Sequence record: MW822008.1
DNA: 64,000 nt
DNA from: Escherichia phage BF17
Reading direction: 5' to 3' (one strand)
The notes under the pieces were generated by a model. It was not told the origin of the DNA. It worked only from the letters and a program-made list of their open reading frames with translations, and did no database searches. The position numbers and the translations under genes were made by a program. This document shows, piece by piece, positions 1,806 to 55,984 of this stretch; the first letter of the stretch is position 1; every line of letters starts with the position of its first letter.

Positions 1806-3971
<2,166 letters not shown>

Positions 3972-3972
<1 letters not shown>

Positions 3973-4766
3973 TGCCAAGTAAAAGTAAAAGCCAAGCGAA
4001 ATTCTTCGCTGCTGCTGCCCATAATCCTGAATTCGCCAAAAAAGCAGGGATTTCACAAAGTGCAGCAAAAGAGTGGAATGCAGCCGATGAAAAAGAGGGA
4101 AATCTTAAGAAAGGTTCAAAACTCCCTAATAAAGTAAAAGAATCTAGTATGCGTGGTTTGGTTGATATTGTACAAGATGCAGAATTAGCTGATACAGAAG
4201 ACAGAACTAGTGATATAATGGATTCATGTGAAGAAGACCATAAAGAGAAATTGGAAGAAATGCCACAACGTTTCGATAGTTTCCAAGGCCAAGACCGTGA
4301 CGAGTTCGTTGACAAAACTGCCGAGATGACAGGTAAGCACAACATGGTTAAGTTCGCAGAACACAAAGATTATGATGTGTTTATGAATAAGAATGGTACT
4401 GGGTTTATTGCCTATGATAAAGCGGGTAAACAGCTTGCTATCGTTAGTGGACATTTGTCGAATGATGCAGTGGTTGGTGTACCACAAGTGTTTGAGATTT
4501 CTGCTACGGCCTCTAAAACTGGCACTAAAGGTATCATCTATAATATCTTTATGGATATGGTTTCTCATGGTATTAAAGTACTAAGTGACAGTCTTCACAC
4601 AGATGATGCAATTAAATTCTGGACCCGATTGATTGGTTCACACCAAGTCTACATTGTGGGTGGTGGTGAAGTACTGGCTAAGGCTAGTCCAGAGAAGGTT
4701 CACAAGTACTGGAGTGATGATGAATTTAGTCCTAGTGCTGAATTACAATTACTTCTGGTAAAATAA
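3972..4766 (+). CDS. hypothetical protein
   Basis: ORF track; ATG overlaps upstream stop (taATGcc). Confidence 0.55.
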
Positions 4767-4772
4767 TAATTG

Positions 4773-4802
4773 TCGGGACATTTAATGTCCCGATATTTTT
4801 TT
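4773..4802 (+). terminator. rho-independent terminator
   Basis: tcgggacatttaatgtcccga hairpin plus T-run. Confidence 0.7.
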
Positions 4803-4865
4803 GAGACAAACAAAGCATTGATGATACAATGTTGCATGACAAAGAGACATTAAAAAGGAATTCAA

Positions 4866-6830
4866 ATGGCTAAGAAAGAAAGTGCTGTTCTTCAGGAACA
4901 TGATGTACAACGTCTAAACGATTATCAACATGCTCGCTTACGTACTGAGATGTATCTGGGTTCACGTTCTGTTCACGAAAGTCAAGTACTGATCTTTGGT
5001 GAGTCTGGATATGAAGTTAAAAACGTTGAGTGGGTTCCTGCAATTCTAACTGCTACTCGTGAAATTATCGATAACAGCTTAGATGAATTTAAAAAAGCTG
5101 GAACAAAAGAGCCAGTACTCAAAGTTGATTTCAATGAAGAAGAGTTATCCTTTGAGATCAGTGATAATGGTCGTGGTATTCCAATTGACTATGTTCCTGA
5201 GTATCAGAAAAATCTATGTACAATGGTAATGACTGAAACTAAAACTGGTCGCAACTTTGATGACTCGAAGCGTGATGAAACAATCGGTCAGAATGGATTG
5301 GGTGGTTCAGTTGCAATGATTGTAAGTTCTAAAGCTGAACTTGAAATCCATCGCCAAGGTCGCCCGTATAAAACACAAAGTAGCAATGACGGATATGACG
5401 GTTTTTATAAGTTCAATCAGAAGTTCGAAGAAGGAACTATTATGTTTCCTGAACTTCATGTACATGAACCAACTATTCGTAAGGTTCAAGCAGATAAGAC
5501 TGGAACAACAATTCGCTTCACTCTGAGTTCTGAGGTATTTCCTAACCGTAAACTGCCAACCGAATTGTTATACAGTATTTTGAAAGAAATGTCTGCTGCT
5601 AACCCTACCTATAAGATTTTCCTTAACGGTAAGCGTATTGCAATTAAAGGAACTACTGAAAAAGCACTATTCAACGCATCTAAACTGATGCAATTGAACG
5701 TTAAAGATGAATCATTCAACTTTAACAGTACTTTCTACATTGTTCCTAATGCAGTATCGGGTATGAACAATAACTTCCATATGCATGGTTTGGTTAACAA
5801 TGCCCCAGCATTTGATGGTGGTACACATCTTGATACATTCAAGAAATTCTTCTCATTAGGAGTAGGAACTGCTCTAGAGAAAGAATCAAAGAAACGCAAG
5901 ATGAAACCTAACCGCTCTGATATTGAAGAAGGTCTGTTGATTTATAACGTAACAACGATGAAAGCACCATCATTCAACTCACAGATTAAATCAAAACTAA
6001 CCAACGAAAACGTTATTCGTCCAATTCAACAAGCGATGAATTCTGAATGGTTCGATGAATTAGTCAAGAAGAACAAAGAGTGGATTGATGAAATTTTTGA
6101 ACGCTGTGCTGCTCGTACCAACAAGAAAGATGCAGAAGAAGATCGCCGTCTAGCTAAAAAACTACTGAAAGGTAAAGTTGCAAAACTATTGGACAGTACA
6201 GGTACGGATCGTTCCAAATGCATCCTACTAATTGCTGAGGGTGATTCTGCTATTTCCAACATGGCGAGTGCTCGTGATCCTAAAGTTCATGGTATTCTAC
6301 CATTGCGTGGTAAAATTATGAACGTCAGTGGTAATGAGAAAACCAAAGAATTAATGGATTCAATGGCATTGCATGATATAATGGCGAGTATCAACCTGAT
6401 TCCTGGTGTAAAAGCGGAAAGAGCAGACCTTAACTATGGTAAGCTTTATATCTGTGCCGATGAAGATGAGGATGGAAAGAACATTGGTGCTTTAGTATGT
6501 AACTTCCTATACAAATTCTGGCCTGAACTATTCCAAGACCCAGAGAATCCATTTGTGTATATATTCAAAACACCATTCATCATTCTAGAGAAAGGTAAGG
6601 AATCCAAGTACTACTATGGTCATGATGTACATGAATACAACCCAGATGATTGGAAAGGTTGGAAAGCAACCCGTGCGAAAGGATTGGGTACGTTAGAAAA
6701 AGCAAACTTCCGTGATGCATTCACTAACAGTGTTACAGTAGCGATCACTGATGATGGACGTCTTGGTGAAACACTTGATTTGATTTTCAACAAGAAACGT
6801 GCAGATGATCGTAAGAACTGGATGGAATAA
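4866..6830 (+). CDS. 39: DNA topoisomerase II large subunit (GyrB-like ATPase plus Toprim; T4 gp39 and gp60 equivalent as a single ORF)
   Basis: GHKL box ISDNGRGIP; Toprim LLIAEGDSAISNMASARDPKVHGILPLRGKIMNV; ICADEDEDGKNIG. Confidence 0.85.
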   Translation: MAKKESAVLQEHDVQRLNDYQHARLRTEMYLGSRSVHESQVLIFGESGYEVKNVEWVPAILTATREIIDNSLDEFKKAGTKEPVLKVDFNEEELSFEISDNGRGIPIDYVPEYQKNLCTMVMTETKTGRNFDDSKRDETIGQNGLGGSVAMIVSSKAELEIHRQGRPYKTQSSNDGYDGFYKFNQKFEEGTIMFPELHVHEPTIRKVQADKTGTTIRFTLSSEVFPNRKLPTELLYSILKEMSAANPTYKIFLNGKRIAIKGTTEKALFNASKLMQLNVKDESFNFNSTFYIVPNAVSGMNNNFHMHGLVNNAPAFDGGTHLDTFKKFFSLGVGTALEKESKKRKMKPNRSDIEEGLLIYNVTTMKAPSFNSQIKSKLTNENVIRPIQQAMNSEWFDELVKKNKEWIDEIFERCAARTNKKDAEEDRRLAKKLLKGKVAKLLDSTGTDRSKCILLIAEGDSAISNMASARDPKVHGILPLRGKIMNVSGNEKTKELMDSMALHDIMASINLIPGVKAERADLNYGKLYICADEDEDGKNIGALVCNFLYKFWPELFQDPENPFVYIFKTPFIILEKGKESKYYYGHDVHEYNPDDWKGWKATRAKGLGTLEKANFRDAFTNSVTVAITDDGRLGETLDLIFNKKRADDRKNWME

Positions 6831-6880: not shown

Positions 6881-8293
6881 ATGGCTAAAAGTAAAAAAAC
6901 CGAAAATCAAAGCATCGATAACCAAACACTAACTCTACTAGATTATAACAGTTCTGATTATGTGAATACCACATCACTAGAATATTCAATGTACACACTA
7001 GACCGTGCAATCCCTGGGATTGATGGCCTTAAGAGTTCACAGCGTAAAGCAATCTTCACCCTCTCAAAAGTTAGTGGTGAAATCAAAACTGTATCATGTG
7101 CTGGTAAAATGATTAGTGATGGTATCTATCTACACGGTGATACATCTGCATCTGGTACTCTTCAGAACCTAGCATCACCAGTCGTAAACAACTACCCACT
7201 CATTGGTAAACGTGGTGGTTTTGGTACACAAGTAAACAGTACTCCAGCTTCTGCTCGTTATACTTATGTTAAAAAGAATAAAAGTACTGAAATGTTAGTA
7301 CTGCGTGACTCTGACATTATTCCAATGAAAGAGAACTATGATGGTACTACAATGGAACCAAGTTTCTTTTTACCTATTATCCCACTATCTTTGTTTGGTA
7401 ACGATAGTATGTCAGTAGGTTATAAGAGTACAATTCTACCACATAAGATTGAAGATGTTATTGATAACTGTATTCGTGCTATTGATAAAAAACCATTAAA
7501 AGAAATGACTCCATACTATGTTTCATGTGGTGCAAGTGATATCGTAACTAAGCTTGATGAAAACAAATATGAGTTCTATGGTAAAGCACAAGTAATTGAT
7601 GCCAGTACTGTTAAAGTAACAGGTCTACCACCTAACTACAGTATTGAGAAATTCATCGAGAAACTCATTAAGATGAGCGATGATGGTGATATTCGTGATT
7701 ATGATAATGATAGTACTGATGTTATTGATATTACAATCAAATTGCCACGCGGAACATCTGCTAAATGGGTGGAGAAAGATGTAATTGAATACTTTGGCAT
7801 TCATAAGAAGATGACACAAATCCTAACTGTTCTAGGTGAGAATGGTAAGGTTAAAGTCTATGATAACACAATGGATTTGATTAAGGACTTTGTTGAATTC
7901 CGTTTCAAATACTATGTGAAACGCTATGAGAAGAAACTTGATGATTGTGCTGCTGAAGTACGTTATAAGATTCTAATCAAAGAATGTTTTGATAATGATA
8001 TGATTGCTAAGGTTAAGGGTTTTGCTAACCGTTCAGAAATGGTTGAGTTTGTTAAATCATTAAACACTGAAATCGAAGCAACCGATGAGAATATTCAAAG
8101 CATCGTAAACTTCCCATCATATCGTTGGACCCAAGACAATTATCAATCAGTACTAGCTGATATTCAACATAACTTGGATTTAATGGATGAATATAACAAT
8201 CTCCTGTCGAATCATGATTTGATTTGGAACATCTATAAAGATGAGTTGAAAGAACTACGTAAGATTGACTTCACGCCAAAAACTGAAGATTGA
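6881..8293 (+). CDS. 52: DNA topoisomerase II medium subunit (GyrA-like breakage-reunion domain; T4 gp52-like)
   Basis: N-terminal YSMYTLDRAIPGIDGLKSSQRKAIF resembles GyrA [24 protein letters not shown]; follows gp39-like gene. Confidence 0.75.
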   Translation: MAKSKKTENQSIDNQTLTLLDYNSSDYVNTTSLEYSMYTLDRAIPGIDGLKSSQRKAIFTLSKVSGEIKTVSCAGKMISDGIYLHGDTSASGTLQNLASPVVNNYPLIGKRGGFGTQVNSTPASARYTYVKKNKSTEMLVLRDSDIIPMKENYDGTTMEPSFFLPIIPLSLFGNDSMSVGYKSTILPHKIEDVIDNCIRAIDKKPLKEMTPYYVSCGASDIVTKLDENKYEFYGKAQVIDASTVKVTGLPPNYSIEKFIEKLIKMSDDGDIRDYDNDSTDVIDITIKLPRGTSAKWVEKDVIEYFGIHKKMTQILTVLGENGKVKVYDNTMDLIKDFVEFRFKYYVKRYEKKLDDCAAEVRYKILIKECFDNDMIAKVKGFANRSEMVEFVKSLNTEIEATDENIQSIVNFPSYRWTQDNYQSVLADIQHNLDLMDEYNNLLSNHDLIWNIYKDELKELRKIDFTPKTED

Positions 8294-8302
8294 TTATAAA
8301 CA

Positions 8303-8334
8303 GGGAAGACCTTTGTGGGTCTTCCTTGTCCTTT
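8303..8334 (+). terminator. rho-independent terminator
   Basis: ggaagacc tttgt gggtcttcc hairpin then T-rich. Confidence 0.6.
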
Positions 8335-8335
8335 A

Positions 8336-8343
8336 TATAAATA
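8336..8343 (+). promoter_or_regulatory. T4-type late promoter box TATAAATA
   Basis: Only perfect TATAAATA found by eye in the window, about 39 nt upstream of ATG 8382. Confidence 0.5.
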
Positions 8344-8381
8344 ATCTATAGATAATGGTAGCTTGGCTATGGAGAATTATA

Positions 8382-10778
8382 ATGACAACTTTTACCCCTA
8401 GATGGGATATAAAAGCCGATGCTCGATATATACAAGAAGGACAAGACATTCTTGTGCGTTTGAGTATCAACAAAGAAACCACAACGGATGATAGTTATAT
8501 ACTTAATGAAAACGAATACTTAGAGATGATTCTAACTATTCAGGGTTTGGACAGTTCTGATGCAGTATTTCAACCAGAAGATCACTACGCAGTGTATGTT
8601 GGTAATGATGAATCTAATCTCACACCTATATCATCAGGTATTACTGGTAACAAGTTGATTAATGGTAAGCACAAATGTAAAATTGATAAAACTCAATTTG
8701 ATCTATCGGCAAGCACTAATACCGAAGATGTTTATTTTATTAAATTGCATTGTAAAGATGATGGTACATTTAACAACTCTGAACAGATTAACTTCTATCT
8801 TCAAGCAGTAAATGTTATGTACTATGGTAACATTTCCCCTAGTGGTGAAATTGGTTCAAATGAAGTAACAATTGAATATGATAGTCAGGAAGTGTGGGTT
8901 ACTCCTGGAATCGAAATCGGTGATGATGACAAATTATATTGTATTGGTGATATTGAATACGGTTCCAACAGTACTTTATTTGTACAGGGATTTGGTCGTC
9001 GTCGTCCATTTATTTTAGGAACGGATACATCAACTGACCTATCTCCTAGAGTATTTTATCCAGCGTATCGTCTACTCGATATGACCCCAGCAGAAGTTCC
9101 TGCTCGCCACATTACTGATGATTATGCAATCCTACGTCCTATTGATAATATATGGCCTGTATTTGGTATTAATAAAGAAATTAAGGTTAATATTCAAACT
9201 AGCTCTGGGGAGTTACTAGATTCAGGATTGGTTTTCAACCCAAATGGACAATTTCTGCAAACATTCCTATATGACTCTGATGCATGTGATGCATATTTCA
9301 AAGTTGAAATTGTTGATATTTTGAGTACATATAGTTATGACACTGACCGCTTCGCTATAAACCAACGTTTCAAAGCATATCAAATGTGGGTATGTCCAGA
9401 CAATGTAGATGGTATATACGCTGATGGTGATAAACCTTTACCTAATCATTTGTATCAGTTGAAAGATAACGTTGTATATCCATATGTAATCTCTGGTGAA
9501 TATGATCTAGGTGAAACAAAGCCAGTGTTTAAAAGTTCAGATTGGATTGATTTAGGATATTATGATTCAAGCTTAGGTGAGAATATTATAGGTGAAGAGA
9601 AGATGTTCCGTGTTCTAGTGAACGCAGAAGAAGGAAACTCAATAGACTTCACAACTGATAGTGATTTAGGTAGTATTCATGTGGGTGAATATTTCGGTCA
9701 CAGTACTTATCCACAAATACAAACTACCAGTACTAATCAGGTATCTTATGTATTAGATGGTGGACCTGATGATATTCGCAAATATGGTTTGGACCTCACC
9801 GCAGATGGGTTCTTGGTCGGGACGGCATATGCAAAAAGTTTAGATTTCAGTGCAAATGATGATATAAAATTAGAATTCAATATCAAAGCATATGACACTG
9901 AAGGTGGTGTTGCGTCCAAGTTATTTAAACTGAAAATTGTACGTGGTTTTGGACAAAACTACTTAAGTGCACATATTGTACCTTCTGTTTATTTTGAACG
10001 TGAATGGTTTAAGTGTATTAGTACACCATCATTTACAAAACAAGCTTTCCATCGTCAATCAGATGATAGATACGGGTTACAAAAAGTACCACGTATTCTA
10101 TTAAAAGAAAACTTTTTGAGTCAGAACTATACTTACACTACGTTGAGTGATATTAAAAAAGTACTTAGGGAAAATATCATAAACCAAACTGGTGCAACTA
10201 TACCTGATGGAAAATTTAGAATGGTAATAGGCAACTATAAAGTAATGTCAGCACTTGACAACCAAGGTAACTTACAGTATGATATATTATACCGTGAAGT
10301 TTTACCAGCAGGTTCATTGGTGTCGGTTTCTAAGAATCCAAGAAGTTACACGCAAATTGATAACGGAACACTCGGTGAAATATTTGGCTTGCGTCAAAAT
10401 ATTTTTGCAGCAATTGGCGAAGACACAACTAACCTTGTGAAAGACCCAACTGATTTACAGAACCGTGGTTTGTATGTAGATGCTATACCTGGAATTTCTG
10501 ATGAGATGCTAGATACTGTTCCTCGCTTCATGAATCACCCATACGAAGAAGATGGAGTTAAAAAGAAATTCATGCCAATCATTCCAGTTGCATACTGTGC
10601 ACCAGGAAAGGGTGAAGCATTCTTTAACACTTTACTTCAGAACAATGAACATGGTAAGATGGTTGGTGTTGAGTTTGAAATCACAGGAGTTGAATTTGGA
10701 TTCTTTGCACATGAATTCGAAAACTACGTTCATGATACATTTTTGATTTCATTACAAAACAGCAATTTAGGAGGATGA
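8382..10778 (+). CDS. large hypothetical protein, probably late/structural
   Basis: ORF track 8355..10778; ATG 8382 preferred because of RBS ggag at 8371-8374; late promoter box upstream. Confidence 0.6.
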   Translation: MTTFTPRWDIKADARYIQEGQDILVRLSINKETTTDDSYILNENEYLEMILTIQGLDSSDAVFQPEDHYAVYVGNDESNLTPISSGITGNKLINGKHKCKIDKTQFDLSASTNTEDVYFIKLHCKDDGTFNNSEQINFYLQAVNVMYYGNISPSGEIGSNEVTIEYDSQEVWVTPGIEIGDDDKLYCIGDIEYGSNSTLFVQGFGRRRPFILGTDTSTDLSPRVFYPAYRLLDMTPAEVPARHITDDYAILRPIDNIWPVFGINKEIKVNIQTSSGELLDSGLVFNPNGQFLQTFLYDSDACDAYFKVEIVDILSTYSYDTDRFAINQRFKAYQMWVCPDNVDGIYADGDKPLPNHLYQLKDNVVYPYVISGEYDLGETKPVFKSSDWIDLGYYDSSLGENIIGEEKMFRVLVNAEEGNSIDFTTDSDLGSIHVGEYFGHSTYPQIQTTSTNQVSYVLDGGPDDIRKYGLDLTADGFLVGTAYAKSLDFSANDDIKLEFNIKAYDTEGGVASKLFKLKIVRGFGQNYLSAHIVPSVYFEREWFKCISTPSFTKQAFHRQSDDRYGLQKVPRILLKENFLSQNYTYTTLSDIKKVLRENIINQTGATIPDGKFRMVIGNYKVMSALDNQGNLQYDILYREVLPAGSLVSVSKNPRSYTQIDNGTLGEIFGLRQNIFAAIGEDTTNLVKDPTDLQNRGLYVDAIPGISDEMLDTVPRFMNHPYEEDGVKKKFMPIIPVAYCAPGKGEAFFNTLLQNNEHGKMVGVEFEITGVEFGFFAHEFENYVHDTFLISLQNSNLGG

Positions 10779-10779
10779 T

Positions 10780-11091
10780 ATGTTCAATCCATTTTTTGAT
10801 CCATCAACCATGACCGAGAAAGAGTTACAATTGAAAATTAACGAACAATCGATGCGTATTACGTCTGCTCGTGCAGCAGGTATGAGTGATATGATTGTTG
10901 GTAACATGCAAACCGTTCTGAATCAGTGCTATGCTGAATTAGAGATTCGTCAGGGACAAAAAGAAAAAACCTCCTATGATGAGCAAGACCCATGTGTATT
11001 TGACATGAACTCTTACTTAACGGATAACGAAGAGGATCAGAAGAAGAAAAATGAAAGTACAAGGAAACAGATTTATAAGTCCCAATGGTGA
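10780..11091 (+). CDS. hypothetical protein
   Basis: ORF track; RBS aggagg before ATG. Confidence 0.5.
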   Translation: MFNPFFDPSTMTEKELQLKINEQSMRITSARAAGMSDMIVGNMQTVLNQCYAELEIRQGQKEKTSYDEQDPCVFDMNSYLTDNEEDQKKKNESTRKQIYKSQW

Positions 11092-11569
11092 TGTAAAATG
11101 TAACCTTAATGCAGTCGTGTATGCAATCAACTGTGGTGCAGATATTCAGTACTTACAGCTACAGGAGATTGATGAACCGGAACGATTGAAATTTAACGAT
11201 AATTGTAAAAAATTTGGTTTAGAACAGCGTATGCTGGATTATACAATAGAACATGATAAAAACCATGAACTATGGCGTTATGATCCAGTGTACGATAACA
11301 TCAACTTGCGTGAGTACTTTTTACAGAAATGTACATCGGATGAAGCCCGTGAACGTGTAATGTATGAGATTGATTTGTTTGAACATTACAACATGACTAA
11401 GCTTTTAAGATGTATGATCTGGTTAGTTGATTATATGGAAGAGCACAATATTTTTTGGGGTCTTGGGCGTGGTAGTTCAGTGGCTTCGTATTGTTTGTTC
11501 CTGATTGATTTGCATATGGTTGATTCTTTGAAGTATAAACTAGATGTAAATGAATTTTTGAAATGGTAG
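11051..11569 (+). CDS. hypothetical protein with DnaE (Pol III alpha) palm-like segment
   Basis: C-terminal WGLGRGSSVASYCLFLIDLHMVDSLKYKLDVNEFL resembles DnaE [35 protein letters not shown]; true start uncertain. Confidence 0.4.
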   Translation: MKVQGNRFISPNGDVKCNLNAVVYAINCGADIQYLQLQEIDEPERLKFNDNCKKFGLEQRMLDYTIEHDKNHELWRYDPVYDNINLREYFLQKCTSDEARERVMYEIDLFEHYNMTKLLRCMIWLVDYMEEHNIFWGLGRGSSVASYCLFLIDLHMVDSLKYKLDVNEFLKW

Positions 11570-11632
11570 AAAAACATGTGATATAATGTTGTTTGAGGCG
11601 TTATATCACTCACATAGAAAAAGGATTTTTAT

Positions 11633-11977
11633 ATGTCAAAACACACAACTTATCGTGGAACCACCATTGATATGGATATGCTAAAGTATCAAAACCAGCA
11701 CAAAGTAGCACTAGGTAATGCAAACCTAAATGCTCGTGGTGATAAGATTGGTTCGGGTGGAACGGTCATTAAAACCCGTGAAGAACTAATCCAAGAAAAA
11801 GAACGTGAAATGCAAATTCCTGATTTCATTCCTGAACACCAACTTCACAGTGCTGAATATAGTACTGAAGAAGTATGGGATGATGAAAGCTTTGAAGTTC
11901 AACCACAAGAACCAGAAGTTGAAGTATCTGAAGAGAAGAAAGCTCCACGCAGAGCAAAAACTAAAGATCAGGAGTGA
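11633..11977 (+). CDS. hypothetical acidic protein
   Basis: ORF track; RBS aaaagga upstream. Confidence 0.5.
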   Translation: MSKHTTYRGTTIDMDMLKYQNQHKVALGNANLNARGDKIGSGGTVIKTREELIQEKEREMQIPDFIPEHQLHSAEYSTEEVWDDESFEVQPQEPEVEVSEEKKAPRRAKTKDQE

Positions 11978-11980
11978 TTC

Positions 11981-12307
11981 ATGACCAATAAAGTAATGAC
12001 AGCTTGTAAAGGTAAAGTTATTGTAACTGAACTAGAACATGGTGAGCGTAAAACCGCAGGTGGTATTGTACTGACAAGTGATGATGGTAAGATACGTGGT
12101 ATTCGTTGTCGTTGGGCTAAAGTATATTCTGTTGGTGAAGACATTACCGATATCAAAGAAGGACAATGGATTCTAATTGACCACGGTCGTTGGTCGAGAA
12201 CTATTGAGATTGATGGTATTAAAATGAATCTCGTGGATTATCCAGCAGCAGTAAGTTTGGTATCTGACACTGATCCACGCATCTCTGCTCAAACATTTGG
12301 TCGTTAA
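11981..12307 (+). CDS. 31: GroES-like co-chaperonin (T4 gp31 analog)
   Basis: KTAGGIVLT motif and GroES-like length and layout. Confidence 0.55.
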   Translation: MTNKVMTACKGKVIVTELEHGERKTAGGIVLTSDDGKIRGIRCRWAKVYSVGEDITDIKEGQWILIDHGRWSRTIEIDGIKMNLVDYPAAVSLVSDTDPRISAQTFGR

Positions 12308-12318
12308 AACATAAATCT

Positions 12319-12350
12319 AAAGCTCGGATATATTATCTGGGCTTTTTATT
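12319..12350 (+). terminator. terminator-like hairpin
   Basis: agctcggatatattatctgggctt then TTTTT; G-U pairs in stem. Confidence 0.45.
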
Positions 12351-12363
12351 TGGATGAAAATAC

Positions 12364-12633
12364 ATGATAACTGATGATGGAAAATATAGTTTTTCTGACG
12401 TTACGTTAGTTTCTAAAAATGGACGATTTATGTTTGAAGATAGAACTAACACGAAGTACGTATATGAAGTTTCTCATGATATGTTTAAGTACTTACTTAT
12501 CGTATCAGCCCAGGCCGAAGCAATGGGCGTGAAGAACAAAGCAAACTCATTTAATTTTTTGTTTAATCAACTTGAAATGACAGAAGACTTATTCACTGCA
12601 TTGTTGTATGATTATGCAGATTGGATTTCATAA
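12364..12633 (+). CDS. hypothetical protein
   Basis: ORF track. Confidence 0.45.
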   Translation: MITDDGKYSFSDVTLVSKNGRFMFEDRTNTKYVYEVSHDMFKYLLIVSAQAEAMGVKNKANSFNFLFNQLEMTEDLFTALLYDYADWIS

Positions 12634-12659: not shown

Positions 12660-13613
12660 ATGACTACATTATGGACTGAAAAATACCGCCCACTAACTAT
12701 GGAAGATTATGTATCTAAGAACGAAGCCCTACGTCAGAAGATGGAAGAATGGATTCGTACTGGTGATATCCCACATATTGGATTTTTTGGACCAGCAGGG
12801 ACAGGTAAAACTTCAGCAATCAAAGTACTACTGAATGGTCTGGAAGCTAACGGACACCTTGACCCTAGTGATGTAACAACACTGAATATGTCAGATGAAG
12901 GTATCGATGCTGTTCGTGATAAAATTGACGCAGCAGCAAAACTATCATGTTTTGGTCGTTATCGTGTATTTGTTCTGGAAGAAATGGAACAAATGAACCA
13001 CAAAGCACAGGGTAGCTTGAAACGTGTCATGGAAGATTACCATGAAAATGCTCGTTTCATTCTTACCAGTAATGAACCACATAAGATTCAGAAACCTATT
13101 ATCTCGCGTGTTCAGGTCATCACCATTGAGAAGCATGATATGGAACAATTTATGTCACGCATCTACAACGTACTATTAGCAGAAGGAGTAGATCTAAGTA
13201 CTGATGAAAGTATTGAGCAAGTACAAAAATACATCAATGCTTCATATCCTGATTTCCGCAAAACGCTAAACGTATTGCAAAGTTCAGTAGTCGATGGTAA
13301 ACTTGTAAAACTAGAAGACAGTATTGAGAACTCTGCTGGGTATCGTACTGCCATTATTGATGCACTAAAAGCTGGTAACATTCGTCAAATGCGTGAGCAG
13401 ATCGTGCAAAACATTCCTGATGATGAGATGGATGCATTCTTCTCTTATCTGTATCGTAATGCAGAAATGTTCAGTACTGATGAAATTACTCTAATGAAAA
13501 TTAAGGTTAAGATTCGTGACGCTGTTGTTAAACAAGCTACCGTGTCTGACCGTGAAATGAATCTCAGTGCATTACTGTGTGAGATTGACCTAATCTGTTC
13601 GGGGAACATGTAA
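12660..13613 (+). CDS. 44: clamp loader ATPase subunit (RFC small subunit / T4 gp44-like AAA+)
   Basis: N-terminal WTEKYRP, Walker A GPAGTGKTS, SYPDFRKTL matching gp44 NFPDFRKTI. Confidence 0.8.
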   Translation: MTTLWTEKYRPLTMEDYVSKNEALRQKMEEWIRTGDIPHIGFFGPAGTGKTSAIKVLLNGLEANGHLDPSDVTTLNMSDEGIDAVRDKIDAAAKLSCFGRYRVFVLEEMEQMNHKAQGSLKRVMEDYHENARFILTSNEPHKIQKPIISRVQVITIEKHDMEQFMSRIYNVLLAEGVDLSTDESIEQVQKYINASYPDFRKTLNVLQSSVVDGKLVKLEDSIENSAGYRTAIIDALKAGNIRQMREQIVQNIPDDEMDAFFSYLYRNAEMFSTDEITLMKIKVKIRDAVVKQATVSDREMNLSALLCEIDLICSGNM

Positions 13614-14239
13614 TGAAAGACCGTTGTATTGTATTCGACTGTGATGAAGTACTACTAGATCACATTGGTTCATTAGGAGAATACGCAAAACTCCAATATG
13701 ATATCAACCCAACAACACCATACCCACTCGCATACGATTTATCCGAATGGTTTGGTGTTTCACGAGAAAAAGTTCAAGAGATCATTACTGAATTCAATCA
13801 ACGTTCGTATATGTTTGGATTACTAAAACCTGTAGAAACTAACACTGTAAGTATTATGCATGAACTGCGTGATCGTTTTTACAAGGAAAAATTCATAGTA
13901 CTGACTAAGTGTGGTAAGAAAGGTTATAGCGAGGTACTTCGCAATACTAATCTTATGCATGTATTTGGTGAGACATGTTTTGATGAAATCATCATTGTTG
14001 AAATGAATGAATCTAAGCATGAAGCACTAGTAGAATTAAAAGAACGATATGACGTAAAACTGATGATTGATGATTATATCAATAATATTGAAACATCAAT
14101 GGAATTGGGTATCCCATCAGTTATGATGCGAGCGTCCCACAATCATATGTATAAAAATGGTTATGGGTATGACTATGTTAACAACTGGGATGAACTACGT
14201 TTAAAAATCTATTCAGTACTGTCGAAATATTACCAATAA
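13613..14239 (+). CDS. HAD-superfamily hydrolase, possibly 5'(3')-deoxyribonucleotidase-like
   Basis: N-terminal HAD motif I FDCDEVLLD; start overlaps gp44 stop. Confidence 0.45.
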   Translation: MKDRCIVFDCDEVLLDHIGSLGEYAKLQYDINPTTPYPLAYDLSEWFGVSREKVQEIITEFNQRSYMFGLLKPVETNTVSIMHELRDRFYKEKFIVLTKCGKKGYSEVLRNTNLMHVFGETCFDEIIIVEMNESKHEALVELKERYDVKLMIDDYINNIETSMELGIPSVMMRASHNHMYKNGYGYDYVNNWDELRLKIYSVLSKYYQ

Positions 14240-14254
14240 TATAGTAAAAACAAT

Positions 14255-14287
14255 GGGGATTATTTAATCCCCTTTTATTGTTTTTTA
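14255..14287 (+). terminator. rho-independent terminator
   Basis: ggggattatttaatcccc hairpin then T-run. Confidence 0.65.
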
Positions 14288-24472: not shown

Positions 24473-24804
24473 GCAAAGACAGCAAAGAATTTATAGTGCG
24501 TTGTAGTTGTGGCGATAATACGGAACATTGTGTTCACATTTCACAATTTGACTTGACACAAGAACATGGAGATGATAAACTTGGTCAATGTCTGGTGAGT
24601 ATGCGTTTGAATCCTTTCTTAAAATGGTACAAACGTGTATGGGTTGCATTGAAGTATATTTTCGGCGTAAACGACTTTCAATACAAAGAAGCAATGATTG
24701 ATGTTGACATTCTGAAAGAAGTTGTGTTACAATTAGAAGATACCCGCTCCGATGAGGTAAAGAAAGAAGAAAGAGATAAACGTACTGATGTGAAGGTTTT
24801 ATGA
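24469..24804 (+). CDS. hypothetical protein
   Basis: ORF track; ATGA overlap. Confidence 0.5.
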   Translation: MSKDSKEFIVRCSCGDNTEHCVHISQFDLTQEHGDDKLGQCLVSMRLNPFLKWYKRVWVALKYIFGVNDFQYKEAMIDVDILKEVVLQLEDTRSDEVKKEERDKRTDVKVL

Positions 24805-24995
24805 GTACTGAACTTTATGAAAAAAAGTACTGTACAAATTGTTCAACCGAGTATACAATACAGGGTATGTTGATTTGTACAATATGCCAATCAAAACAGG
24901 CTGCCACTTTTATCGTTGATGATAGATTTGGTGATTTAAAACAGTTTAAAGCAAACCGTAATCTTCGTAACTTTAGCAATCTATATAAGGAATAA
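24801..24995 (+). CDS. zinc-ribbon small protein
   Basis: CTNCS ... CTIC cysteine pairs. Confidence 0.45.
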   Translation: MSTELYEKKYCTNCSTEYTIQGMLICTICQSKQAATFIVDDRFGDLKQFKANRNLRNFSNLYKE

Positions 24996-24998
24996 CAC

Positions 24999-25427
24999 AT
25001 GAATATCGAACAAACTATCCGTAACCACTCTTTCTTCGCTGCTGAAACTGGTCGTGTAATCGAGAGCGTCAAAATTGAAGAACTGATGATTAACGTTAAA
25101 TATAAAGAACTGAATGATGAGATTAGCAGCACCATTTGTGCACTACGTGCTCCATTCCGTTCTGAAGCAGCTAAGAAACCTGCCTATGTACTGGCGATTG
25201 CATTGGGTTGTGTAGTGAAATTGGTCGTTGATGAAAATCAACTAAATATCAAAGTTGCTCCAACCAACGATGAAGAAAACATCGACCTGAACTTTGAAGG
25301 TAATCTGGCTGAAGACGTATTCTTCCAACAATCACTGGTTTATGATTTCCGTACTGTAACTCATGACCACATCAACTTTGTCAATGAGATGGTTGACATT
25401 GTAGCTGAATACGAAGCTTCCCTATAA
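24999..25427 (+). CDS. family-A paralog (C-terminal EE-x-FFQ-x-S module)
   Basis: C-terminal EDVFFQQSLVYD. Confidence 0.6.
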   Translation: MNIEQTIRNHSFFAAETGRVIESVKIEELMINVKYKELNDEISSTICALRAPFRSEAAKKPAYVLAIALGCVVKLVVDENQLNIKVAPTNDEENIDLNFEGNLAEDVFFQQSLVYDFRTVTHDHINFVNEMVDIVAEYEASL

Positions 25428-25440
25428 TTAGATTAACAAA

Positions 25441-25463
25441 AGCCTCCGTAATGGGGGCTTTTC
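25441..25463 (+). terminator. terminator-like hairpin
   Basis: agcctccgtaatgggggct then TTT. Confidence 0.45.
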
Positions 25464-29393: not shown

Positions 29394-30254
29394 ATGAAAC
29401 CTATCAGAGTACTGTCACTTTTTAATGGAATGAGCGTTGGATATATGGCATTGGCAGATGCAGGTATTCCAGTTGAAAAATATTACTCATCTGAAATTGA
29501 CAAGTACGCAATTGCTGAATCTTCCGAGAATTTTCCTGATATTATCCAGTTAGGTGATGTGACTAAGTGGAAAGAATGGGATATTGAGTGGGATAAGATA
29601 GATTTACTCATGGGAGGATTCCCATGTCAAGCCTGGTCTGTTGCTGGTAAGCAAGGTGGCTTGAATGATATACGTGGACAGTTATTTTTGGTTATGGTTG
29701 ACATTTTTGAGCACATCAAAAGTGTAAATCCAAACTTGCAATTTCTGTTCGAGAATGTTAAAATGAAGGAAGATTTCAAAGAATACATTAATAGTATTTT
29801 AGGAATCACACCAGTACTGATAAATTCCCAGCATTATACGCCTCACTTCAGGCAGAGATACTACTGGTGCAGTACTGATAAGCTTTTTATACCACCTGCA
29901 TTATCAAATGCCCCTAAACTTCAAGATATCATTGAAGATGGTTGGTACACTGACAGAACCGCTTCGTACTGTATAGATGCTAACTATTTTAAGGGTGGTG
30001 ATTGTAACCAGTACTTTAATAAATCAAGACGACAGTTGGTGTTTCGTGACCCAACGATTAATCGTCAATATCTATTGGAGAATGGTAAAAGAAATATTGA
30101 CTATAGACACTTAAGTGTAGTAGAATGTTGTAAATTACAGGGTATTCCTGTAGATTTCTTTAAAGTGTCTAGTAAGACACAAGCATACAAAATGCTTGGG
30201 AATGGATGGACTATGCCAGTTATATCACACTTACTAAGAGAGATATTCTTTTGA
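29394..30254 (+). CDS. DNA (cytosine-5)-methyltransferase, compact
   Basis: Motif I FNGMSVG, motif IV GGFPCQAWSVAGK, motif VI FLFENV, motif VIII-like FRQRYYW. Confidence 0.65.
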   Translation: MKPIRVLSLFNGMSVGYMALADAGIPVEKYYSSEIDKYAIAESSENFPDIIQLGDVTKWKEWDIEWDKIDLLMGGFPCQAWSVAGKQGGLNDIRGQLFLVMVDIFEHIKSVNPNLQFLFENVKMKEDFKEYINSILGITPVLINSQHYTPHFRQRYYWCSTDKLFIPPALSNAPKLQDIIEDGWYTDRTASYCIDANYFKGGDCNQYFNKSRRQLVFRDPTINRQYLLENGKRNIDYRHLSVVECCKLQGIPVDFFKVSSKTQAYKMLGNGWTMPVISHLLREIFF

Positions 30255-55015: not shown

Positions 55016-55984
55016 GTGAAAAAGCTTGATTTAAATGCAATTTCTGAAGAAGTACTGGATGAGTGTTTTGCTAGTGAAGAAGTCAACGTATTAGAGGCTC
55101 TTGATTCCGTCGAAGAAGAAGAAGAACATGACGGTCACAAGTTTGAGAAACCAAAAACAGGTATCAGCTTAACTCGCCCTAAAGGGATAACGAATGAAAT
55201 GCTCATCCAAGCAGTGCGTGATGGTATTGACGTTGAAAAGAACATTGACCTTTTGGTTCGCTACAACTATCCAATGGTAGTAAGTGTTGCACGTAAGTGT
55301 ACATGTTTTATCCCATTTGAAGATAAGATTTCTTATGGTGTTGAAGGTTTAATGCGAGCAATTCATACGTTCGACACTACCAAAAATGTTAAGTTCATTA
55401 CATATGCAACAACAACTGTGTACATGACAATCTATAACGAAAGTGCAGATGCTAATTATCTAGTGCATTTCCCACGTTATATGAGTGTTAATAACATTTA
55501 TGTGAAACGTTGTGTAGAAGAGTATCAAAGGAAACATGGTAAATACCCAACTCCTGAGATGGTGTCAAAAGAGACTGGTATTGAGATTCAACACGTTAAG
55601 AATTGTCTAACTTACAATAACACTTATGTAGCATTGAATATGAAAATGAGTAATGATTCAGAAAGTACATTATCTGACATTGTTACTTCAGTTGAACCTG
55701 ATTACAACTTAGGCGTAGAAACTGTCAGTACCCCACTGGTACAAAGTATTGCAGAAATGATGAGTAACCTATCTGCCAAAGACCGTGAATTGATTGAACG
55801 TGTACATGGTATTGGTTCTTATTCTGAACCAGAAACGCTACGAGAAATCATTGAGAGTGGTTTTGAAGATGAGAAGGGTAAGGTCATGACTGCTCGTTCT
55901 TCATTGCACCGCAAGTACTCTGAAGCAATGGAACGTCTTCGTAAGATGGTGAAGACGCAAGGTTACGAGTTCGAAGATTTTTAA
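55016..55984 (+). CDS. sigma-70 family RNA polymerase sigma factor (regions 2, 3, 4)
   Basis: Region 2 LLVRYNYPMVVSVARK...YGVEGLMRAIHTFD...KFITYATTTV; region 4-like C-terminus; GTG start with RBS aggaga. Confidence 0.7.
   Translation: MKKLDLNAISEEVLDECFASEEVNVLEALDSVEEEEEHDGHKFEKPKTGISLTRPKGITNEMLIQAVRDGIDVEKNIDLLVRYNYPMVVSVARKCTCFIPFEDKISYGVEGLMRAIHTFDTTKNVKFITYATTTVYMTIYNESADANYLVHFPRYMSVNNIYVKRCVEEYQRKHGKYPTPEMVSKETGIEIQHVKNCLTYNNTYVALNMKMSNDSESTLSDIVTSVEPDYNLGVETVSTPLVQSIAEMMSNLSAKDRELIERVHGIGSYSEPETLREIIESGFEDEKGKVMTARSSLHRKYSEAMERLRKMVKTQGYEFEDF

Follow-up and report, generated by a model that had tools for sequence, protein, structure and literature searches.

A 172-residue DnaE palm segment in Escherichia phage BF17 as the probable N-terminal half of a split minimal Pol III alpha

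Why would a phage genome carry, as a free-standing small gene, an internal piece of the palm of DnaE, the alpha subunit of DNA polymerase III (Pol III), that stops just short of the catalytic aspartates? The question is raised by an open reading frame (ORF) of Escherichia phage BF17 (sequence record MW822008.1), in a stretch of 64,000 nucleotides which we refer to throughout as the window. An initial annotation made from the sequence alone had placed this ORF at 11051-11569 and quoted the C-terminal sequence of its product, and both are confirmed here. Our analysis indicates that the product, hereafter the N-unit, is probably one of two polypeptides, the N-terminal one, that make up a minimal C-family (Pol III alpha-like) nucleotidyltransferase, the catalytic half of which (the C-unit) would be encoded by a distant gene. 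Enzymes of this kind typify the Rak2/121Q/PA5oct/Atu_ph07-type (“group 2.2”) jumbo phages, and the arrangement is already known, having been described computationally by Iyer, Anantharaman, Krishnan, Burroughs and Aravind (2021; Viruses 13:63; PMC7824862) and being present in part in database annotation. The gene and its parts are as follows.

11051..11569, + strand: gene of the N-unit of the probable split minimal Pol III alpha; ATG start, 172 residues and a stop codon
11051..11317, + strand: residues 1-89, a lineage-variable N-terminal region with a beta-hairpin and helices
11318..11566, + strand: residues 90-172, sequence homologue of the DnaE palm (E. coli residues ~310-393)
11465..11479, + strand: codons of G139-R140-G141-S142-S143, the counterpart of E. 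coli G361-R362-G363-S364-G365

Residues 90-172 form a pair of long helices, an edge strand, the GRGSS loop and another helix, and end in EFLKW, while approximately the second half of residues 1-89 can still be superposed on the beginning of the DnaE palm. From its sequence, GRGSS is recognizable as the G[GS] triphosphate-binding loop of the Pol-beta-like nucleotidyltransferase fold; in DnaE, the equivalent loop holds the triphosphate of the incoming deoxynucleoside triphosphate. In a structural model of the N-unit alone, the predicted local distance difference test score (pLDDT) of this loop falls below 50 at residues 139-141 and the terminal strand and loop are poorly ordered, which is consistent with a loop that would become ordered only in an assembled active site. 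No PHP domain was found in the N-unit ORF, nor did Pfam return a match to PF02811, PF17657 or HhH, and the catalytic aspartate triad (E. coli D401, D403, and D555) is not in the polypeptide.

Searched against Pfam, the ORF matches PF07733 (DNA_pol3_alpha) at 36.4 bits (E 5.8e-9), the gathering cut-off of this family being 23.9 bits. The match pairs N-unit residues 90-171 with positions 15-95 of 260 and is thus not confined to the GRGS stretch. Used as a single sequence against the PDB, the N-unit gave a merely suggestive match to Taq alpha (E 0.28); a profile built from the 57-member N-unit family matched nine PDB sequences, all nine of them DnaE, with residues 320-393 of E. coli alpha as the top match (E 1.6e-3). 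In the profile alignment, R140-G141-S142 pair with R362-G363-S364 of E. coli alpha, where the context is GPGRGSG. Weak matches of the N-unit to RuBisCO_large_N and sortase were judged to be noise. Because the Pfam and profile evidence agree, we regard the similarity to DnaE as real and as reaching far past GRGS, and the palm resemblance reported in the initial annotation holds. Its further statement that the ORF ends just before the catalytic motif proved accurate as well, as the C-terminus corresponds approximately to E. coli N393-P394, ~7 residues ahead of D401/D403.

The initial annotation had pointed to the flanking sequence as a place where further DnaE fragments might lie. A six-frame search of the 64-kb window with hidden Markov models of both units found no second DnaE piece; the N-unit profile matched this ORF alone (E 1.5e-67) and the catalytic-half profile gave nothing better than E 0.08 in any frame. 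A DnaE match was likewise absent from ten larger ORFs of the window, Pfam returned no match for the flanking ORFs at 10780-11091, 11633-11977, 12364-12633, and 8355-10778, and no DnaE piece adjoins the N-unit gene in three distant metagenomic neighbourhoods. A frameshift or read-through into the downstream ORF was also considered and rejected, the downstream frames being devoid of DnaE similarity.

The continuation of the palm is found in related phages as the C-unit, represented by gene 16 of phage 121Q (13282..13920), a 212-residue protein labeled “DNA polymerase” in RefSeq, which begins with MQDSTDSKHYRKARTDIDIDF and belongs to phrog_11778 “DNA polymerase” (E 4.7e-108). We identified 796 C-unit homologues, with the 120 listed ones measuring ~157-220 residues, mostly 190-217. 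The family holds D16, D18, D20, H48, G51, K80, D82, R149, P150, K152, K187, H190, Y194, and N203 invariant, in the motif order DIDIDF, KVD, RPG, and KxHAxxY. Against the PDB, the C-unit profile matched M. tuberculosis DnaE1 alone, weakly (E 0.029), in four collinear pieces consisting of PDIDIDF, the KxDFLG palm strand, YRPGP, and FNKSHA; the fold predicted by AF2 (pLDDT 92.9) agrees. The distance from DIDIDF to KVD is 58 residues in the C-unit vs. ~150-160 in DnaE, and therefore the thumb is absent, while the fingers are reduced to ~125 residues from ~350. C-units begin 0-16 residues ahead of DIDID, some of them simply with M-DIDIDF, and the start of the C-unit gene overlaps its upstream ORF. 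The two units are collinear with DnaE, the N-unit ending at about E. coli residue 393 and the C-unit beginning at about 399-401.

Two observations concern the annotation and surroundings of the C-unit gene. In many GenBank records the C-unit is labeled “hypothetical protein” or “putative membrane protein”, and the label “DNA polymerase III alpha” sits on the non-catalytic N-unit, which in several records is called “DNA polymerase III alpha subunit” or “DNA-pol3-alpha domain-containing protein”. Additionally, a DnaQ/RNase T-type 3'-5' exonuclease (PF00929, 6.7e-15) is encoded ~4.3 kb upstream of the C-unit gene, at 24634-25452 in phage fEgEco12 and 8128-8946 in 121Q; it belongs to phrog_192, annotated as “DNA polymerase exonuclease subunit”, and is a candidate epsilon-like proofreader for a split polymerase without a PHP domain.

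Searches of 50,697 phage records with each unit by tblastn returned 100 records with the N-unit and 95 with the C-unit over all genera. The respective counts are identical in Escherichia (33 and 33), Pseudomonas (11 and 11), Salmonella (8 and 8), Erwinia (8 and 8), Xanthomonas (4 and 4), and Yersinia (4 and 4), and are 10 and 11 in Klebsiella; Clostridium and Bacillus phages with genuine, full-length DnaE genes account for part of the N-unit surplus. In the listed records that were checked, both genes are present and never adjoin, lying 14-182 kb apart: ~14 kb in Xoo-sp13 and CM1, ~31 kb in fEgEco12, WPEC5, and 121Q, 44 kb in PA5oct, 116 kb in SCTP-2, and 182 kb in Atu_ph07. Positions 10700-12400 of the window are 99.3-99.6% identical to the jumbo coliphages WPEC5, EC.P1, Ecwhy_1, vB_Ec-M-J, fEgEco12, and WPEC3; with 121Q and PBECO4 (Asteriusvirus) the identity is ~82%. 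Of these relatives, fEgEco12 (99.4% identical) encodes the N-unit as g421, the C-unit as g381 (96% identity with 121Q gp16), and, as g356, a family B polymerase of 1001 residues (PF03104, 1.3e-22; PF00136, 3.4e-21), with a sliding clamp and a DnaQ-like exonuclease encoded nearby. By projection from these relatives, the C-unit gene should be present in the BF17 genome itself, ~21 kb before window position 1. The initial annotation had taken the phage to be T4-like with a family B polymerase; the polymerase is supported by g356, and the genome is that of a Rak2/121Q-like jumbo myovirus with a T4-type core, not of a classical T4-like phage.

The N-unit is conserved end to end. It is covered in full by phrog_11127 (positions 1-171 of 171, E 3.9e-85), and among 5.8 billion proteins searched there were 110 homologues, down to 35% identity, all 155-187 residues long save a few shorter entries that lie mostly on short contigs. 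A profile search of 1.84 billion cluster representatives (clusters at 50% identity) gave at least 474 N-unit clusters at the cut-off of E<=1e-30; the best 150 of these all measure 157-196 residues, with the match nearly always reaching within a few residues of the C-terminus. EFLK terminates each of the 57 aligned N-units, followed mostly by 0-2 residues and by 11 at most. This alignment, in which identity falls to 28%, holds 15 invariant positions, including G137, G139-R140-G141-S142-S143, V144, S146, and Y147. Compared with the 121Q orthologue, 71 of ~96 synonymous sites differ and are thus saturated, with only 14 non-synonymous changes (dN 0.034, omega ~0.01), demonstrating that the gene is under purifying selection.

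Taken together, these results argue for a division of the Pol III alpha core between two chains, for which we propose the following scheme. The N-unit would bring the first palm segment with the invariant GRGSS loop, and the C-unit, starting exactly where the N-unit stops, would bring the metal-binding aspartates D16, D18, and D82 together with the KxD lysine and a trimmed finger domain carrying RPG and KxHAxxY, such that neither half alone would hold a complete active site. The two would associate non-covalently: the N-unit, through its unpaired edge strand and its GRGSS loop, would dock onto the DIDID strand of the C-unit, thereby completing the palm sheet and forming a single active site. 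The assembled enzyme would comprise ~384 residues, devoid of PHP, thumb, clamp-binding, and OB domains, and would work beside the family B replicase, probably as an accessory in repair or specialised synthesis. Physical association, polymerase activity, and biological role are inferred. It has been noted previously that group 2.2 jumbo phages combine a family B polymerase with a “phage-specific minimal version” of Pol III alpha, and either cooperation with PolB in the synthesis of one strand or a function in repair was proposed (Iyer et al., 2021).

Several points weigh against this scheme. Sequence support for the C-unit is weak (E 0.029 for the PDB profile match and E 0.045 for the Pfam finger match), and its homology to DnaE is for this reason carried mainly by the predicted fold and the motifs. 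Its presence in BF17 is projected from relatives because the gene lies outside the 64-kb window, and the identity of these relatives, 99.3-99.6%, refers to window positions 10700-12400. Co-regulation is not evident, since the genes lie in different clusters 14-182 kb apart, and processive templated synthesis is doubtful given that the thumb, most of the fingers, and a recognizable clamp-binding region are missing. Our literature search found no experimental report of an interaction or activity of the two units, and the omics paper on PA5oct holds no text on the expression of these two genes.

The lack of a thumb and of clamp-binding parts makes an accessory or non-processive role the more plausible one. 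With the halves encoded in separate gene clusters, the time and place of their meeting could gate activity, and because there is neither thumb nor clamp-binding region, the role may be other than bulk replication, such as short-patch repair or primer or untemplated synthesis. The joint reading, in which an active site spanning a protein-protein interface, gated activity, and a non-bulk role all apply together, we consider unlikely. If the halves do reconstitute a ~384-residue enzyme, no smaller C-family polymerase core is known, and two chains would share the active site; the enzyme would offer a minimal model for Pol III alpha catalysis, bear on the debate over the ancestry of bacterial replicases, and help to explain the second polymerase in jumbo phages that possess a full T4-type PolB replisome. 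The annotation “DNA polymerase III alpha subunit” on a 172-residue protein would then tell half the story.

Two alternatives concern what the N-unit does. It could be a co-opted stand-alone domain, independent of the C-unit, that binds nucleotides or acts as a modulator docking on host Pol III or on a phage replisome protein. The distance between the two genes, the lineage-specific N-terminal ~70-90 residues, and the conserved order of the genes around that of the N-unit (structural protein, small ORF, N-unit, small ORF, GroES-like gene, clamp loader) would suit such a domain, but we give it little credence, as the phyletic distributions of N-unit and C-unit coincide almost perfectly, the 7-residue linker ahead of the DxD strand is exactly where the chain breaks, the invariant residues are those of the catalytic-site GRGSS loop rather than of a surface patch, and the C-unit would be left without a G[GS] loop of its own. 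The initial annotation was correct in describing a free-standing DnaE-palm piece; its suggestion of a co-opted domain is incomplete, and the piece is not an orphan domain, since the palm continues in a co-occurring 212-residue gene ~31 kb away. Alternatively, the units may assemble as proposed, with the product being a terminal transferase, a primer-like oligonucleotide synthase, or a nucleotide-signal synthase in place of a templated polymerase. The shortened DIDIDF-KVD interval and missing thumb, the reduction of the fingers from ~350 to ~125 residues, the lack of clamp-binding, OB, and PHP domains, and the fact that a complete family B replicase, clamp, and clamp loader are already encoded all speak for such an activity, to which we nonetheless assign a low probability.

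A further alternative concerns how the halves are joined. In Synechocystis, DnaE is the product of two distant genes whose halves are joined by a split intein, and by analogy the N-unit and C-unit might be linked covalently into a single chain by a split intein or by RNA trans-splicing. A second argument in this direction comes from Clostridium phage CS266P1 (OP172775.1, 44 kb), in which an element that bears an HNH endonuclease gene and resembles a group I intron breaks the dnaE frame at precisely the codon position of the jumbo-phage split. In the phages considered here, the N-unit stops 1-2 residues past EFLK with no ~100-residue IntN extension, C-units begin 0-16 residues before DIDID, split-intein halves were found neither at the N-unit C-terminus nor at the C-unit N-terminus, and no Hint/intein Pfam match exists in either unit. 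The next ORF follows just 63 nucleotides after the N-unit stop, the C-unit gene starts within the ORF that precedes it, and Rfam detected no intron-like RNA at window positions 10500-12400. With no room, no motifs, and a negative Rfam search, covalent joining is rejected as very improbable, and the non-covalent assembly of two subunits is retained.

The CS266P1 locus also bears on the origin of the break. Its dnaE (3032-6600) consists of two ORFs of 412 and 508 residues with the HNH endonuclease gene between them; the former carries PHP and PF07733 positions 2-102, and the latter begins with MDIDVDF and carries PF07733 positions 103-260, the fingers, and HhH, so that interruption and jumbo-phage split share one codon position. 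Excision of the 841-nucleotide element restores FM-RKEKKKL-PDIDVDF with the canonical 7-residue spacing, and the element is preceded by U, has G as its last base, and contains a AGATAGTC-like motif. From these boundaries and the exact restoration of the linker, a group I intron with an HNH gene is thought likelier than a protein-level split, although Rfam detected no group I intron in the element. Accordingly, CS266P1 was set aside as a precedent for a protein-level split, because its splice-site logic fits a group I intron; its pieces are adjacent and, if an intron is present, interrupted at the RNA level, whereas the jumbo-phage halves lie far apart. Since the two breaks coincide, the jumbo-phage split could go back to a mobile element that inserted long ago at the DxD-coding site, after which splicing was lost and the two exons moved apart. 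Two further families, phrog_13169 and phrog_7513, comprise proteins of ~460 residues with an N-unit-like segment at their C-terminal ends, and may be exon-1 products of the same kind.

Finally, the initial annotation had allowed for a gene remnant, and a functionless decaying fragment of a once full-length host-derived dnaE might be suspected from a product that represents ~130 residues' worth of a ~1160-residue protein without the catalytic aspartates and whose 172-residue orthologue in phage CBB was recorded as a “truncated” Pol III alpha (PMC5259590), but we reject this reading as highly improbable in view of an omega of ~0.01 (dN 0.034 against saturated dS), the uniform length and end point down to 28% identity, the 15 invariant residues, the at least 474 diverse clusters of like length, and the dedicated partner gene that co-occurs with the N-unit.

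The surroundings of the N-unit gene contribute additional observations. A 103-residue ORF without a family match (10780-11091, + strand) shares 41 nucleotides with the start of the N-unit gene, an overlap that is also kept in 121Q (gp55/gp56), suggesting translational coupling to the upstream block with the 807-residue virion structural gene. Over the last N-unit codons lies a near-consensus sigma-70-type promoter (window 11558-11609, + strand; 11 of 12 matches) composed of TTGAAA, an 18-nucleotide spacer, and TATAAT with a TG extended -10; the -10 element sits inside a perfect 9-nucleotide inverted repeat, GTGATATAA / TTATATCAC (11578-11586 and 11601-11609). The predicted promoter would drive a 114-residue ORF and a GroES-like gene, and the repeat could serve as an operator or as a 5' hairpin. 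The GroES-like gene (window 11981-12307, + strand) matches Cpn10 at E 1.1e-4, and the phage has two such co-chaperonin genes, the second located at 13977-14279 in fEgEco12. In a distant metagenomic relative the Cpn10 gene occupies a like position relative to the N-unit, and the three metagenomic neighbourhoods mentioned above keep the order structural protein, N-unit, small ORF, Cpn10, and clamp loader. Other features of the window are listed below.

12660-13613: T4-type clamp loader
13613-14239, + strand: NT5C/HAD-like nucleotidase, directly after the clamp-loader gene
29394-30254, + strand: C5 cytosine DNA methyltransferase (PF00145, 4.7e-37)
55016-55984, + strand: sigma-70 family factor, regions 2 and 3

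Among known systems, cyanobacterial DnaE is encoded by two distant genes (dnaE-n and dnaE-c), being divided in the fingers after about residue 774, and its halves are ligated by protein trans-splicing through a naturally split intein. The jumbo phages likewise build a C-family polymerase from two far-apart genes, but here the break is inside the palm ahead of the DxD strand and intein sequences are absent. With the DnaE/PolC enzymes exemplified by E. coli Pol III alpha (PF02811, PF07733, PF17657, and HhH/OB), the N-unit shares the PF07733 palm and the G[GS] loop. In contrast to those enzymes, it has only 172 residues, leaves the catalytic aspartates to a separate polypeptide, lacks the PHP, thumb, clamp-binding motif, OB fold, and tau-binding region, and is not the main replicase of its genome. 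The full-length phage C-family polymerases (group 3.2, e.g., Bacillus phage G; phrog_405) have a homologous palm in common with the N-unit and keep the PHP domain, the full finger, and HhH, which the N-unit does not. The closest counterpart is the split Pol III alpha of Iyer et al. (2021), where the N-unit class (phrog_11127) represents the same family, phage clade, architecture, and split point, likewise with a distant partner gene and a family B polymerase. The BF17 protein is a stand-alone product of ~170 residues with the NTP-binding palm segment, ending before the DxD strand; a distant C-unit with Mg-binding and template-binding subdomains is present in its relatives fEgEco12, WPEC5, and Ecwhy_1, ~31 kb from the N-unit, and is expected in this genome, and both the family B polymerase (fEgEco12 g356) and the T4-type clamp loader (in the window) are found. 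We see no substantive difference from the group 2.2 N-unit, and the window thus adds a further member from a 121Q/Ecwhy_1/fEgEco12-type coliphage.
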